In this document: piece by piece, positions 2,118 to 10,493 of the stretch
Layout of the letters: each line of letters starts with the position of its first letter
Numbering within the stretch: position 1 is the first letter of the stretch
NCBI GenBank assembly: GCA_028713935.1
Contig: JAQTNI010000029.1
Span: 7,535-18,253 of the forward strand
Direction of reading: 5' to 3'
Length of the DNA stretch: 10,719 nucleotides
DNA from: Candidatus Iainarchaeum sp.
GTDB taxonomy: Archaea > Iainarchaeota > Iainarchaeia > Iainarchaeales > GCA-2688035
Notes under the pieces: model-generated
The model's input: only the letters and a program-made list of their open reading frames with translations
What the model was told of the DNA's origin: nothing
Databases searched by the model: none
Position numbers and translations under genes: made by a program

Positions 2118-4871
2118 TTATTCGCCTTCCTTTATGAATTTTGTTTCAATTATTTTTCCAGTGTTTAATTCCACTATCGGGACAATTCCTGGTGTTGGAG
2201 TATGCCCAAGCTTTACCTGGTAGTTTGTTTGCGCCTGCCAAGTCCCTGAATTGATCACTTTTGTTCCCCTGTATTCCGCATAGTTATTGTGATGCATGTC
2301 CCCGATATAAACAAGGTCCGGCTCTTCCTTTATCACCATAAAATCTTTTTTTTCAGGAACATATGGATGGCTCATTCCATAGCTTGGCATCAAATCCCTT
2401 TTTTTCAATAATTCCACCATTGCCTCTGAAGGCCTGCTTGACTCAAGCGTTGAGGCATTGTCAATCAAGTCATGCAAAGAATCGCCATGATAAATGAGTG
2501 TTTTGAAGCCTTCTATTTCAAGCCAGGTTGGGCTTCCCAAAAAATGAATATTGCTGTATCCTTCCAAATCTTTTGTGAATTCTTTTGGAATTGCAGGCTT
2601 TGGGTCTGCCCATCTGACAGCATCATGCTGCCCAGGAATAATAAAAACTTCAATGTATTCCGGAATTTCTTTTATCAGCCTCCATACCTCTTCATATTGC
2701 TTTCCGATGTCTTTTATGTTAAGGTCGTTAAATTGTGTAGGGTAAATCCCAAGCCCATCACAATTGTGTACCACAATATTTTTTGTTGTATAAGAATTGT
2801 CGTCTGTAACTTGCAGATTGTATACAAATCCCTTATATTCCATTTTTTTGATTTCTCTGATGGGCACCAAAACAAAACCCTCTTCGAGCTGTGCATGCTG
2901 CCTTATCTTTCTTTTTCTTTTTTTCATGAACGGGTGCTTCCAATTCAAGATTTTGCTCATTCTCTCCAAATCTATTCCGCCAACCTCAACATTATATAAT
3001 GCATTTTTTCTTTTCCCTTGTTTGCCTGCGGTTGGAATTTTGTAAATAGTAGGCACGACTCCCAAGCGCAAGAGCAGTATTTTTATTTGCGCAACCAGTT
3101 CTGCAGAAGTGTTGCTTAATGCAAATTTTTGCTTTTTTATGCAGCCATCGCCGTACCAAACGCCCTTCACAATCTCTTTTTGCTGTTCCTTTGGAAGAAG
3201 CATGAATTCGCCTGGCAATTTTTTTCCTTTTTCTGAACTGAACCTTTTGAAAAATGCCGCGATTATTTTTGAGTGAACATAAATTTGGCAACCGTTGTCT
3301 ATTTTTGAATAGTTTCTTTTGGCTTTTACGCCAAATGTTTTTTTGAAGATATTTTCAACATCTTTAAGGCAGGCTTCTTCATTTTTATTGAATGAAAATA
3401 CCACTGTGCCTCTTTTTTTATTAAATTTTATTGAGCCTTCGGCAAGATAATATCCAATCAATCGCATTAAATCTTTTGAAATTTTGATTTTGTCAAATAC
3501 TTTTACTTTAAACCTGTCTTGCCTGAGAGAAATCAAATTTCCTTCTTTTTTTATTCCATTTTTTTTAAAAAGTTTTGAAAGTTTAAATGCAGGCATTTTT
3601 TTTTCTTCTGTAGGAAACGGAAAAATTGCATAGTCCTGTTTTTTTAATTCTCCTGCGGTTATCCATTCTATTTTATAGTTTCTGTAATGCTTGTAAAGGC
3701 ATTCTCTGTTGTAAGAGGCATATTTCTGCCTGATGCATGCCTTGTTGCAAATAGTGGTTTTTCCTTTATTTCTGGAACTTTTGTATTGGCAATGCTTTGT
3801 TCTAACCGCCAGAACCGGGTGTTCAGGGGTAATCCCAAGTGTTTCATTTGAGCCAACAGTTTTCAAATTTATTATTTTTCCATGAAACTCTCTTTTGAAT
3901 TTTTTGACAACTGGGCGGAACTGCCCTTTGTGAGTTAAAACATTTTCGCCATTTTCAATTTCAGAAATATTTTTTTCGCCGGATTTGCAGATTATTTTTG
4001 TGCCTGCACTAACGCAATTGTCGCCGCTTATTACCAAGTACTTTACTTTGCTTACTTTTTCCCTTTCCTTTTCGGAATCAATTCTCCCGTTAATCCATTC
4101 CAAAAAATCGTAAAATTTTTTTTCAAGGAACAATTTGCTTCCCATGTGAATATCGGAAGTTGAGGCAATTGAAACTTCGTCCGGAATTGTTTTTGTTTTG
4201 CGCAATGGCAGGTCTGGAAAAAGGATTTCTTTTGCAATAATCATTTCATCGGCAAACTTCACTCCTTTCACTCCAATCACATTGTCAGGTAAGATAAGCT
4301 CTGCAATTTTTGTCAGGACAGGGTCTGTTTTCATTATGAGCAAAATGCAGCTTGCTTCCTTGTCTTCTATCTGGAAAGCAATATGCCCGTTTTTAGTGAC
4401 CCATTTCTTGAAAACCATTGCAATGACATCAACCTGGTTGTTTTTGGGAATTTTTTTAACCTGGCTTATTGGCCTTGGCTGCAGAGTGTGCCTTTTTTTC
4501 AGCATTTCAGAAAGCAAATCAAATTTTTTTTGGAACAAGGCCAGAAAATTTTTTACTGTGCCTTCTGAATTGCTCTGCCCAGTAACATCGTATTCTGACA
4601 AAAACCTTACTTTTTTTGGCATTCCTTTCGCGTCTGCCTTAAAGGCTCTGTTTTCCACTACTGCCTTTGCCTCAAAAACCTCTGTTTTTGGCCTCTGGAT
4701 TTTTGCCTCAATGTCTTTTGCTTCCAGAACAAATGCATTCGGGTTTTCAGAGCGCCATTCTTCGATTATTTTTTTAAAATCAGTATTTTCAAGCAGTTCA
4801 ATTGCCCTTTTGTCAAGGACAATGTTTTTTTCAGCAGCAAATGCAACAATTCCCTCTTGACTCGTTTCCAA
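2118..4871 (-). CDS. polB: DNA polymerase II (PolD) small subunit DP1, intein-containing precursor (917 aa; about 499 aa after splicing)
   Basis: ORF-track protein. It has an OB-fold region (VDVIAMVFKKWVTKNGHIAFQIED). Calcineurin/Mre11-like phosphoesterase motifs are present: SDIHMGS (I), ISGDN//CDGLGIYP (II, interrupted), IIPGQHDA (III), LIYHGDS (IV), IGDMHH (V). The start is TTG at 4871, preceded by GAGAAAGTGG plus a T tract; there is no in-frame ATG before residue 84. Confidence 0.93.
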   Translation of the reverse strand: METSQEGIVAFAAEKNIVLDKRAIELLENTDFKKIIEEWRSENPNAFVLEAKDIEAKIQRPKTEVFEAKAVVENRAFKADAKGMPKKVRFLSEYDVTGQSNSEGTVKNFLALFQKKFDLLSEMLKKRHTLQPRPISQVKKIPKNNQVDVIAMVFKKWVTKNGHIAFQIEDKEASCILLIMKTDPVLTKIAELILPDNVIGVKGVKFADEMIIAKEILFPDLPLRKTKTIPDEVSIASTSDIHMGSKLFLEKKFYDFLEWINGRIDSEKEREKVSKVKYLVISGDNCVSAGTKIICKSGEKNISEIENGENVLTHKGQFRPVVKKFKREFHGKIINLKTVGSNETLGITPEHPVLAVRTKHCQYKSSRNKGKTTICNKACIRQKYASYNRECLYKHYRNYKIEWITAGELKKQDYAIFPFPTEEKKMPAFKLSKLFKKNGIKKEGNLISLRQDRFKVKVFDKIKISKDLMRLIGYYLAEGSIKFNKKRGTVVFSFNKNEEACLKDVENIFKKTFGVKAKRNYSKIDNGCQIYVHSKIIAAFFKRFSSEKGKKLPGEFMLLPKEQQKEIVKGVWYGDGCIKKQKFALSNTSAELVAQIKILLLRLGVVPTIYKIPTAGKQGKRKNALYNVEVGGIDLERMSKILNWKHPFMKKRKRKIRQHAQLEEGFVLVPIREIKKMEYKGFVYNLQVTDDNSYTTKNIVVHNCDGLGIYPTQFNDLNIKDIGKQYEEVWRLIKEIPEYIEVFIIPGQHDAVRWADPKPAIPKEFTKDLEGYSNIHFLGSPTWLEIEGFKTLIYHGDSLHDLIDNASTLESSRPSEAMVELLKKRDLMPSYGMSHPYVPEKKDFMVIKEEPDLVYIGDMHHNNYAEYRGTKVINSGTWQAQTNYQVKLGHTPTPGIVPIVELNTGKIIETKFIKEGE
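2763..4016 (-). mobile_element. Class 1 intein (418 aa, residues 286-703 of DP1) with an embedded LAGLIDADG homing endonuclease
   Basis: The insert begins with Cys (TGC 4016..4014) immediately after GDN. It ends in VVHN (AAT 2765..2763) and is followed by the +1 Cys (TGT 2762..2760). Block B is LGITPEHP. The two LAGLIDADG motifs are LIGYYLAEGS (3432..3461) and VKGVWYGDGC (3141..3170). Blocks F/G are FVYNLQVTDDNSYTTKNIVVHN. Removing the insert restores GDN-CDGLGIYP, which matches the DP1 GDxxDGxGIYP motif. Confidence 0.9.
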
Positions 4872-4875
4872 AAAA

Positions 4876-4885
4876 CCACTTTCTC
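4876..4885 (-). promoter_or_regulatory. SD-like element GAGAAAGTGG upstream of the DP1 TTG start
   Basis: It lies in the 19-nt gap between the UPF0147 stop (TAG, 4893..4891) and TTG 4871. It is nearly identical to the element upstream of secF. Confidence 0.4.
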
Positions 4886-4890
4886 GAAGC

Positions 4891-5160
4891 CTACTTTACT
4901 TTCTCCTTTAAAGCCTCGAGTTTGGATATTATCTGCCAGATGTCTGTCCTTGCATGCGAAGGCATGTTGATGTCGTTGCTTATGTCATCAAGCAGGTAAA
5001 TTGCGTTGCCAATGCTTGTTGCGTCAATTGTTTTTGCCTGGATTTTTTGCGCCGCATCCTCAACAACAGTCCTTATGTTTCTTGGAACGCTCCTGTCATT
5101 TGCAACTTCTATCATGAGCGCAATAGCTTCTTTTGCTTCTTTTTTTGTTTCTTCTGCCAT
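4891..5160 (-). CDS. UPF0147-family small archaeal protein (about 89 aa)
   Basis: The sequence ...VANDRSVPRNIRTVVEDAAQKI...AIYLLDDISNDINMPSHARTDIWQIISKLE matches my recollection of the UPF0147 signature (VPRNIR ... DPNMPxHxRTxIW). The ORF track starts at GTG 5166; ATG 5160, two codons downstream, is my preferred start. Confidence 0.7.
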   Translation of the reverse strand: MAEETKKEAKEAIALMIEVANDRSVPRNIRTVVEDAAQKIQAKTIDATSIGNAIYLLDDISNDINMPSHARTDIWQIISKLEALKEKVK

Positions 5161-5227
5161 GAACACCAGCTTTTTTTAATTGACAATCAGCGCCGAGCGA
5201 AAAGTTAAATTATCATCCGCGAGGCTT

Positions 5228-5251
5228 AAAGAAAATAAAACAGCAAAAGAC
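5228..5251 (-). terminator. Candidate oligo-T termination tract downstream of the 271-aa gene
   Basis: The minus strand reads cttttgctgttttattttcttt, about 40 nt after the TAA at 5290..5288. Archaeal RNA polymerase terminates at T tracts. Confidence 0.3.
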
Positions 5252-5287
5252 TTTTAAAGGAAAGCAAAATTGGTTTTGTGCTTGCTG

Positions 5288-6103
5288 TTATTGCCCCTGT
5301 TGCGTTTCTTCTATTGCATGAAGGCGTTCCCTGCTTTTTTCAATTTGGCGCAGGCTTGTTCCTGCTAACTTTGCAAGTTCCTGATTGCTAATTTCTTGGC
5401 CTTTTTTCAGCGCCCTGTTCAGAAAGTGAAGAACTTTAAGGTCAAGGGCAGCACGCCTGCGCGCGAAAAAATTTGTTTCAAGAGTTATTACTTGGCATCC
5501 AGTGCCAAACTGGGAATCATCTCTCTTTTCTATAATCTGAGTTGTGGAAATTTTTAATTTTGCGCCGTAAATTTTTGCGACTTGGTTTGCCTGGGTTGTA
5601 AGTTTTTCTGCAAAGTATTTTGCAAACTCCTGTTGTACGATTATTGCGCCCTTTCGGTTCAACAAAGAATGAATCAAAGTAAGCTTGAAATTTGCGCTAT
5701 ACATGAGAGGGAGAGGTTCGAATGAAAAGCTCCAGTCATATACTAATTTTCTTCTTGGGTATAATTGCATTGGCCTTGTTCTAAAAGAGCGAATTTGTCC
5801 AGGTCTTTTTGTGCGCACGAACTTTGTCATTGATTTGCCTGCGTCTGTATAATGGACTTCGCATTCCTGTGCTAATGCCTGCGCCACATCCCCAAAACAA
5901 CCTGCAAAAACCAGAACTTTTTCTTTAGGTTTAATGCCAACTTTTTTTAATAAGTCCTTGTTTGCTGGAATCAATGCTTGGTGCTTAAATGTTCCTGAGT
6001 CTGCTTTCCAGATTTCTTCAGATCGTGGCTTTCTCCGCAAATTTGGGAACTTTTCCCCTGGTTTTCTGCGTTTCAACCATCTCAAAGGGTTGCCAAATGC
6101 CAT
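5288..6103 (-). CDS. Hypothetical protein: basic N-terminus, class I methyltransferase-like Rossmann core with a degenerate motif I, and a C-terminal helix-turn-helix
   Basis: ORF track, 271 aa. KVLVFAGCFGDVAQALAQECEVHYTDAG resembles motifs I and II of SAM methyltransferases. YDWSFSFEP and LNRKGAIIV resemble motifs IV and post-V. The C-terminus ISNQELAKLAGTSLRQIEKSRERL is HTH-like. I recognise no named family. Confidence 0.6.
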   Translation of the reverse strand: MAFGNPLRWLKRRKPGEKFPNLRRKPRSEEIWKADSGTFKHQALIPANKDLLKKVGIKPKEKVLVFAGCFGDVAQALAQECEVHYTDAGKSMTKFVRTKRPGQIRSFRTRPMQLYPRRKLVYDWSFSFEPLPLMYSANFKLTLIHSLLNRKGAIIVQQEFAKYFAEKLTTQANQVAKIYGAKLKISTTQIIEKRDDSQFGTGCQVITLETNFFARRRAALDLKVLHFLNRALKKGQEISNQELAKLAGTSLRQIEKSRERLHAIEETQQGQ

Positions 6104-10082: not shown

Positions 10083-10493
10083 CTACAATTTGCCGTGATT
10101 TCGCAAAAATGCTTCTATTACGCGCCGCAAATTACGATTTTTTATGACATTGACTGTTACTGCGCTTGCTTTTTTTGGAATCATAACCCTGCAAAAGTTT
10201 GTATGAAAAAAGTTAATGCCTCGTTGCTCAAAACCCATTTGTTTTAGCACAGTCACCACTGTATGGCGTGGCAGTGTTTTTGGCACTTCAATTCTTTTTG
10301 CATGCGCGTGTTGCGCGGCAATTTTTCGTTCAATCCCTGTTGTCATGCGTTCAGATTTTCCTGGAAATGTTCGGACAATTCCATGTGCATCCACAATTTG
10401 AAATGCGCTTATTCGGGTGCCTGGTTTTAAAGCTGTTCTTGGCGGAGTTTTGGATTGTTGCCTGCACTTTTTGGATTGATTGGGTTTTGGCAT
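10083..10493 (-). CDS. Hypothetical basic protein (136 aa). The C-terminal half is tentatively HicA/YcfA-like.
   Basis: ATG 10493 has a strong AAGGAGA 8 nt upstream (10502..10508), which overlaps the stop codon of the preceding gene. The C-terminal segment LPRHTVVTVLKQMGFEQRGINFFHTNF...AVTVNV...LRRVIEAFLRNHG loosely follows the HicA pattern (xxLxxxGF...H......TV....L.....L). I cannot verify this assignment without a profile search. Confidence 0.55.
   Translation of the reverse strand: MPKPNQSKKCRQQSKTPPRTALKPGTRISAFQIVDAHGIVRTFPGKSERMTTGIERKIAAQHAHAKRIEVPKTLPRHTVVTVLKQMGFEQRGINFFHTNFCRVMIPKKASAVTVNVIKNRNLRRVIEAFLRNHGKL

Follow-up and report, generated by a model that had tools for sequence, protein, structure and literature searches.

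A predicted class 1 intein in the metal-binding motif II of the DNA polymerase D small subunit of a DPANN archaeon

We analyzed a 10,719-nucleotide stretch of DNA from Candidatus Iainarchaeum sp. (assembly GCA_028713935.1, contig JAQTNI010000029.1, positions 7,535-18,253, forward strand), referred to below as the window, and found that its gene for DP1, the small subunit of DNA polymerase D (PolD) in archaea, very probably encodes a canonical class 1 bifunctional intein. This intein, composed of a Hint splicing domain and a LAGLIDADG homing endonuclease, is inserted in frame within motif II of the DP1 protein; the host belongs to the DPANN archaea (Iainarchaeota/Diapherotrites). Within PolD, a replicative polymerase in most archaea outside Crenarchaeota, DP1, which combines a calcineurin-like phosphoesterase with an OB fold, serves as the proofreading subunit. 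The assignment follows from the architecture of the protein, the presence of all catalytic residues, the fold, the occurrence of empty-site alleles in close relatives, the grouping of DP1 inteins in an allele-specific clade, and purifying selection, each of which was established here. What is new is the DP1 host and the insertion-site allele, whereas the element itself is of a thoroughly known kind.

Architecture and insertion site

A single, stop-free reading frame spans both intein junctions of the window DP1 gene (Table 1). The original prediction, made from the sequence alone, had placed in this frame a complete class 1 intein of 418 amino acids (aa) with an N-terminal Cys, a TPEH block B, a C-terminal HN and a Cys at the +1 position. 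All of these elements were present, the limits of the intein (residues 286-703, positions 2763..4016) were exactly as proposed, and Pfam Intein_splicing and Hint matches were obtained. The insertion had also been located precisely between GDN and CDG of the phosphodiesterase motif II, and this placement was borne out. In translation, the N-terminal junction reads SKVKYLVISGDN/CVSAGTKIICKSG (where the slash marks the boundary; KYLVISGDN/CVSAGTK directly around it) and the C-terminal junction TTKNIVVHN/CDGLGIYPTQ; motif II is thus interrupted as GDN/CDG, whereas intein-free relatives read GDNVDG. When the window protein was aligned with the intein-free homologs P0003-P0005 (504-506 aa, 70-73% identity over the spliced extein) and with more distant intein-free DP1 proteins, these homologs did not run through residues 286-703, and a clean gap of 418 columns was observed, flanked by GDN[VA]DG.

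Table 1. Features of the DP1 gene and its intein, in window numbering; all parts of DP1 lie on the minus strand
Feature	Position	Strand	Details
DP1 (PolD small subunit) precursor open reading frame	2118..4871	(-)	917 aa + stop, TTG start, 105 kDa
N-extein, residues 1-285	4017..4871	(-)	motif I SDIHMGS 4137..4157; ends with G283-D284-N285 of motif II, 4017..4025
Intein, residues 286-703	2763..4016	(-)	418 aa, 48.3 kDa, pI 10.0
Block A with nucleophile Cys1 (C286)	3978..4016	(-)	C1 invariant in 33 aligned inteins; Hint_2 and intein_Nterm matches
Block B TPEH, intein T63/H66 (T348/H351)	3819..3830	(-)	T63 and H66 invariant among 33 aligned inteins
Cys-rich insert after block B, intein residues 72-115	3672..3803	(-)	C76, C90, C94, C106; about 45 residues
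LAGLIDADG homing endonuclease domain	2937..3509	(-)	single-chain, two-motif type; Pfam LAGLIDADG_3, E 4e-19, two stretches
LAGLIDADG motif 1 MRLIGYYLAEGS	3432..3467	(-)	GYYLAEG, acidic E193
LAGLIDADG motif 2 EIVKGVWYGDGC	3141..3176	(-)	GVWYGDG, acidic D290
Blocks F and G YKGFVYNLQVTDDNSYTTKNIVVHN	2763..2837	(-)	H702 penultimate, N703 terminal; intein_Cterm match
C-extein, residues 704-917	2121..2762	(-)	+1 Cys 2760..2762; C704-D705-G706 of motif II 2754..2762
C-extein motif III PGQHD	2622..2636	(-)	
C-extein motif IV YHG	2484..2492	(-)	
C-extein motif V GDMHH	2289..2303	(-)	

Excision of the intein leaves a ligated extein of 499 aa (calculated mass 57.0 kDa), and the product sizes that had been predicted, 499 aa for the extein and 418 aa for the intein, agree with the translation. 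The spliced extein matched Pfam DNA_pol_E_B (E 2e-15, 57.2 bits, above the cutoff of 29.1) and Metallophos. It also aligned in one stretch with the NCBIfam DP1 equivalog NF003118 (residues 4-494 against positions 4-479 of the 481 in the model, E 2e-132) and, over residues 100-491, with the Pyrococcus abyssi DP1 structures 5IHE, 6HMS and 6T8H (E 2e-80). This match of spliced extein and intein architecture is far beyond chance. The score of the spliced extein on NF003118 was 442.5 bits, against a cutoff of 445; the match of the unspliced protein to this model was broken into two stretches, and the unspliced protein failed every DP1 equivalog model. Such sub-cutoff scores may account for the name under which the sequence was deposited. 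The 917-aa precursor and NCBI MDD5163555.1 share 100% identity; the latter comes from a metagenome-assembled genome (MAG) labelled 'Candidatus ainarchaeum sp.' and has as its product name solely 'LAGLIDADG family homing endonuclease', so the sequence has already been public under an uninformative name.

The metal ligands of P. abyssi DP1 are D363, H365, D407, N453, H500, H563 and H565 (Sauguet et al., PMC4996933). Counted along the HMMER alignment, D284 of the window protein is the equivalent of D407, in line with the original statement that the GDxxDG motif coordinates metals, and the residues equivalent to V408 and V409 border the insertion point, which is one residue past a metal ligand. 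The two proteins have the conserved motifs I, II and IV in common, and five of the seven ligand positions are kept (D240, H242, D284, H795 and H860). The window DP1 differs from the P. abyssi protein in having Q748 for N453 and D858 for H563, a shorter N-terminal region and, after splicing, a Cys at the position of V409. Among 115 DP1 sequences, the residues at the N453 and H563 positions were (N,H) in 73, (Q,D) in 31, (N,D) in 7 and (N,E) in 2. The motif III Q also occurs in intein-free homologs such as P0003-P0005, and the class of 31 far outnumbers the two intein-bearing proteins of this set; the (Q,D) pair is thus a trait of the clade, with no relation to the intein. Q748 and D858 therefore read as a clade variant rather than as loss of DP1 family membership, and the pair may correspond to a different metal preference at the exonuclease site.

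Searched on its own against Pfam, the intein matched Intein_splicing above the gathering score (E 2.5e-10), with weaker Hint_2, Vint, intein_Nterm and intein_Cterm matches at its two ends; both the Hint/Intein_splicing and the LAGLIDADG_3 profiles were detected, as the original prediction implied. In an alignment of 33 related inteins, no variation was seen at C1, T63, H66, G188, E193, G194, D290 and N418, and at least 90% of the sequences share H417 and the +1 Cys. Modelling of the intein with AlphaFold2 on this alignment gave a mean pLDDT of 89.1 and a pTM of 0.89, and the best Foldseek matches of the model in the PDB were TliVMA (7QSU, E 1e-21), PI-SceI (1VDE), PI-PkoII (2CW7) and PI-PfuI (1DQ3). 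Their two-domain architecture and fold are those of the window intein (E 1e-21 to 1e-14, TM about 0.55-0.66), but they are only 13-16% identical to it and reside in V-ATPase, PolB and ribonucleotide reductase; PI-PkoII was the sole PDB match by sequence (E 6e-8). The endonuclease domain matched I-DmoI and the corresponding domains of PI-SceI and PI-PkoII. Block F (VYNLQVTDDNSY) is recognizable and reads VYNLQV, with an Asn where PI-PkoII has an Asp (VYDL).

The Cys-rich insert that follows block B has the spacing C-x13-C-x3-C-x11-C, and its four Cys residues are invariant across the three DP1 inteins described below. Inserts containing 3-5 Cys residues recur in a subset of related inteins from other hosts (a thioredoxin reductase (TrxR)-like protein and others), and the four-Cys insert, which spans roughly 35 residues in the family alignment, is missing from two of five aligned relatives, a comparison that refers to this alignment and not to solved structures. 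This segment was poorly modelled by AlphaFold2 (pLDDT 51-73), with no fold assignable from the model. A role in zinc binding or DNA recognition is conceivable, although the zinc module is a guess.

Distribution and relatives of the DP1 allele

Further DP1 inteins were sought by a word-indexed search of 5.8 billion proteins, by a HMMER search with the full protein against 1.84 billion cluster representatives (of which the best 150 matches were inspected), and by pattern-limited scans of 185,579 GTDB species genomes and of JGI metagenomes. The word-indexed search revealed one further intein-bearing DP1, P0002 (NYZ75233.1, 913 aa, recorded as 'hypothetical protein'), which is encoded in a Micrarchaeota MAG on the contig designated L001/L073. 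Its junctions are GDA/CVTPET...VVHN/CDG, and it is 50% identical to the window protein in the intein and 43% in the exteins. The best 150 representatives contained P0002 and the fragments P0121 and P0160 (83-84% identical to the window intein), and all remaining DP1 proteins among these 150 were of intein-free length. Pfam found no DP1 domain in five other proteins longer than 720 aa in the same set (P0149, P0170, P0193, P0223 and P0260; the scan left out P0229 and P0233). These five were rejected as DP1, the hosts being other proteins (radical SAM, ferredoxin, DNA methylase), with no host domain detected in P0260. In the GTDB scan the allele was found in two species genomes, L073 and L005. 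The latter (archaeon SMAG_U8022) has an intact gene (GDN/CVVGNT...IHN/CDG) whose intein is 84% identical to that of the window, and among the matches listed in the JGI scan only L085, of the L005 lineage, was added. The DP1 allele is thus present in at least three DPANN lineages, namely the window, its sister L005/L085/L004 and the Micrarchaeota P0002, and is rare but not unique. Locus L004 (2214..4238), which was reached via P0121, was rejected as a separate carrier because it is a flawed copy of the L005 lineage. In P0160, a frameshift and a deletion remove motif I. The defects of L004 and P0160 are either assembly errors or decaying alleles of the L005-lineage population.

No description of a DP1 intein was found in the literature searched, whose surveys report inteins in DP2, PolB, MCM, RFC and other replisome proteins and none in DP1. 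To our knowledge, InBase lists only DP2 'Pol-II' inteins for PolD. The DP2 inteins of Thermococcales, haloarchaea and methanogens resemble the DP1 intein in being class 1, in belonging to the same two-subunit polymerase and in their clustering in the replisome. However, their host is unrelated (the two-barrel polymerase subunit), they occupy other sites and represent other alleles, and none is located in DP1 or in a phosphoesterase motif. The list of the top 15 archaeal intein hosts in Novikova et al. (PMC4760082) gives 80 inteins for DP2 and 67 for PolB, and DP1 is absent from that list. A row named 'DNA polymerase II small subunit' in Table 2 of the same article was considered as a possible DP1 entry and rejected; it corresponds to PolB/COG0417, and we read the name as a mislabel. 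The original suggestion that the DP1 site might be a new insertion allele therefore stands with regard to the literature searched, but not with regard to public sequences, as two further lineages carry it and the sequence itself had already been deposited.

In a neighbor-joining tree of 46 related inteins, the three DP1 inteins were monophyletic (100/100 bootstraps) and each host-site allele (TrxR, IscU, etc.) formed a separate clade; which group is sister to the DP1 inteins was not settled by this tree. In the extein tree, the window and L005 proteins were sisters (94/100), nested in a clade with the empty-site P0003-P0005, and since their hosts are sisters, one gain in a common ancestor is enough to explain both inteins. 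More than 30 intein-free Iainarchaeota-like DP1 lineages separate the Micrarchaeota host from that of the window, so that for the Micrarchaeota copy at least one transfer between phyla appears more parsimonious than many independent losses. In the two hosts tested, the G+C content was 0.347 in the intein versus 0.391 in the extein and 0.483 versus 0.544, respectively. The intein G+C, although 4-6 points below the extein, largely tracks each host (0.35 and 0.48), which suggests long residence. Between the window and L005, the proportion of synonymous differences (pS) was 0.51 for the intein and a higher 0.65 for the exteins (permutation p about 0.003). With the exteins near saturation, this difference is only suggestive of later exchange; it may come from extein saturation, composition or later gene conversion. 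A recent horizontal transfer between window and L005, at which the lower intein pS hints, was rejected because vertical descent suffices for sister hosts.

The best-scoring relatives outside DP1 (33-40% identity) were inteins at the CxxC site of TrxR-like flavoproteins (P0226, P0044/45/49/52, L087-L093, L095 and L100). At least one of them (P0226) has a Cys-rich insert, and their C-extein often opens with CDG, as in DP1 (CAT/C..HN/CDG). However, they form their own allele-specific clade, which the neighbor-joining tree does not place as sister to the DP1 inteins, and their +1 Cys is the native catalytic Cys of the host. An ectopic jump from a thioredoxin reductase CxxC intein, suggested by the shared CDG start of the C-extein and by the best pairwise scores, was therefore rejected as having no support from the tree. 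Most relatives (loci L006-L164) immediately precede a Cys of their host, an Fe-S or redox protein; the hosts include SufB (EG/C../CTAP), IscU (GNPV/C../CGD), TrxR-like proteins (CAT/C../CDG), 4Fe-4S ferredoxins and dCMP deaminase. The DP1 inteins differ from all such relatives in that their +1 Cys stands in for a host residue that is natively Val or Ala.

Predicted splicing and homing, and competing explanations

The acidic ends of both LAGLIDADG motifs, E193 and D290, are invariant and the conserved Lys is also intact. Between the window and L005, omega was 0.10 for the intein, 0.07 (0.071) for the endonuclease domain and 0.13 for the N-terminal Hint region, with neither stops nor frameshifts in the intein comparison; extein values were 0.06-0.17, and the C-extein (0.063) was the only segment below the endonuclease domain. 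These ratios indicate that the intein is under purifying selection between the two lineages, and the intact catalytic residues together with the strength of this selection suggest that the endonuclease is probably active. The putative homing target is the conserved GGNGAYAAY/GTNGAYGGNATHGGNATHTAYCC region, and the empty DP1 site in the intein-free relative L002 reads ATAATTTCAGGGGACAAT/GTTGATGGAATAGGGATTTACCCC.

We infer from these sequence features that the intein actually splices and cleaves DNA. Translation would yield a 105-kDa precursor with a 48-kDa insert located one residue past the metal ligand Asp284. An N-S acyl shift at Cys286, aided by T348 and H351 of block B, would be followed by attack of Cys704 on the thioester (trans-thioesterification), by cyclization of Asn703 with the aid of His702, and by an S-N shift joining N285 to C704. 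The product would be a 57-kDa DP1 with the motif II sequence GDNCDG, which would partner DP2 as the proofreading subunit. The freed 48.3-kDa intein would act as an endonuclease that cuts intein-free DP1 genes at the conserved GDNVDGIGIYP coding sequence, and would be copied into the cut allele during repair (homing). While the 48-kDa domain occupies the motif II loop beside D284, the dinuclear metal site almost certainly could not form, and it is reasonable to assume that the DP1 subunit would be inactive until splicing. A more elaborate version, in which splicing would be conditional, with redox state or zinc acting as the gate by way of the Cys1/Cys+1 pair and the conserved four-Cys insert, and would thereby serve as a post-translational switch on the assembly of active PolD in DPANN archaea, is speculative and in our view improbable. 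In the same version, the loading of metal into the host protein could also be coupled to splicing, given that the insert lies one residue from a DP1 metal ligand.

Several observations weigh against a functional and mobile bifunctional intein in DP1. Block F has an Asn in place of the Asp typical of many inteins; however, because the five aligned relatives spanning block F all have Asn here, it appears to be a family trait and not a lesion. The fourth position of motif II was V or I in 124 of 128 tabulated DP1 motifs, and the +1 Cys is thus non-native, so that the spliced enzyme would be substituted beside its metal site. Such a Cys is nevertheless compatible with an intact DP1 gene, because the intein-free P0183 (477 aa, from the representative search) reads GDICDG, with Cys at the intein +1 position; this sequence reflects either natural variation or a scar left when an intein was precisely lost. 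In L004, an in-frame TAA is present in the motif I region (HVGS-stop-LF) and homology is lost past intein residue 384, where the end is divergent. Finally, an allele known from three lineages is a weak sign of active spread, and the intein shared by the sister hosts of the window and L005 requires no recent homing.

The last two points would fit an intein that splices but has a dead endonuclease, and which would persist as a vertically inherited passenger because its imprecise loss would destroy an essential gene. One ancestral gain would cover both sister hosts, the allele is rare across the best 150 representative matches and the two pattern-limited scans, and both inteins have drifted to host G+C, which implies long residence. 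On the other hand, both LAGLIDADG acidic residues have been retained, as has the conserved Lys, and the omega of the endonuclease domain, the lowest tested except for the C-extein, is unexpected for a decaying domain. Moreover, the Micrarchaeota copy needs at least one inter-phylum transfer, and the intein pS is below that of the extein. We consider a passenger with a dead endonuclease unlikely, though worth keeping in mind. A DP1 pseudogene or a splicing-dead intein, with replication carried out by another polymerase, might be suspected from the in-frame stop and loss of homology in L004, from the apparent frameshift and deletion in P0160 and from the two non-canonical metal-ligand positions, Q748 and D858. 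But the window reading frame is intact across 917 codons, the exteins have low omega values relative to L005, the Q/D ligand pair is a lineage trait that includes intein-free relatives, and the L004 lineage also has intact copies, L005 and L085; these findings make a pseudogene highly improbable. The NCBI product name and the MAG source might also suggest an artefact, either a homing endonuclease gene that stands alone or an error in the assembly of the metagenome contig. This is hardly conceivable, as one frame runs through both junctions, the endonuclease domain has Hint blocks (A, B, F and G) on its two sides, and the same architecture was found in three independent assemblies from different projects (NCBI DATDTD010000088.1, JGI Ga0209541_10002657 and NCBI JACCLL010000059.1). 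A bifunctional class 1 intein in DP1 remains the explanation that we favor.

Implications and gene neighborhood

The DP1 allele fills a gap among replisome inteins and provides a clear case of inteins at catalytic residues of replication proteins. It does not change the understanding of inteins; its value is that of an addition to the catalog and a warning for annotation, with no conceptual surprise. With automated names such as 'LAGLIDADG family homing endonuclease' and 'hypothetical protein', a genome survey would score such DPANN genomes as DP1-negative. A compact Cys-to-Cys intein with a defined and highly conserved target site is also a candidate tool, and the spliced DP1, with a Val-to-Cys substitution beside the dinuclear metal center in a clade with two altered ligands, would represent a natural variant for PolD exonuclease chemistry.

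The G+C content of the window is 38%, and its gene order is SecD, SecF, a NOG1-type GTPase, an unannotated 271-aa open reading frame (5288..6103, minus strand), UPF0147 and then DP1. This order recurs in the intein-free relative L003, where a 242-aa open reading frame lies between NOG1 and UPF0147, and the intein-free relative L002 has NOG1-UPF0147-DP1 in common with the window. The window locus departs from an ordinary locus, in the DP1 gene itself, essentially by the insertion. The DP2 gene is not within the window, where an Eco57I-type methylase gene comes after DP1 instead; in L003 DP1 is followed by a 195-aa gene and then DP2, and DP2 is two genes downstream of DP1 in both L003 and L001. 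Rfam and tRNA scans of the window gave no match.

Among the other genes of the window, the 271-aa reading frame and a 136-aa one (10083..10493, minus strand) had no Pfam match; the 242-aa reading frame of L003, also without a Pfam match, occupies the equivalent slot in the interval between NOG1 and UPF0147. The methylase gene directly downstream of DP1 (1..~2100, minus strand) encodes an Eco57I/N6_Mtase-type (type IIG-like) restriction-modification protein with an NPPY motif and is truncated by the left end of the window. In L001, a free-standing gene for a 270-aa LAGLIDADG_3 protein (4577..5389, plus strand) is located two genes upstream of the intein-bearing DP1.

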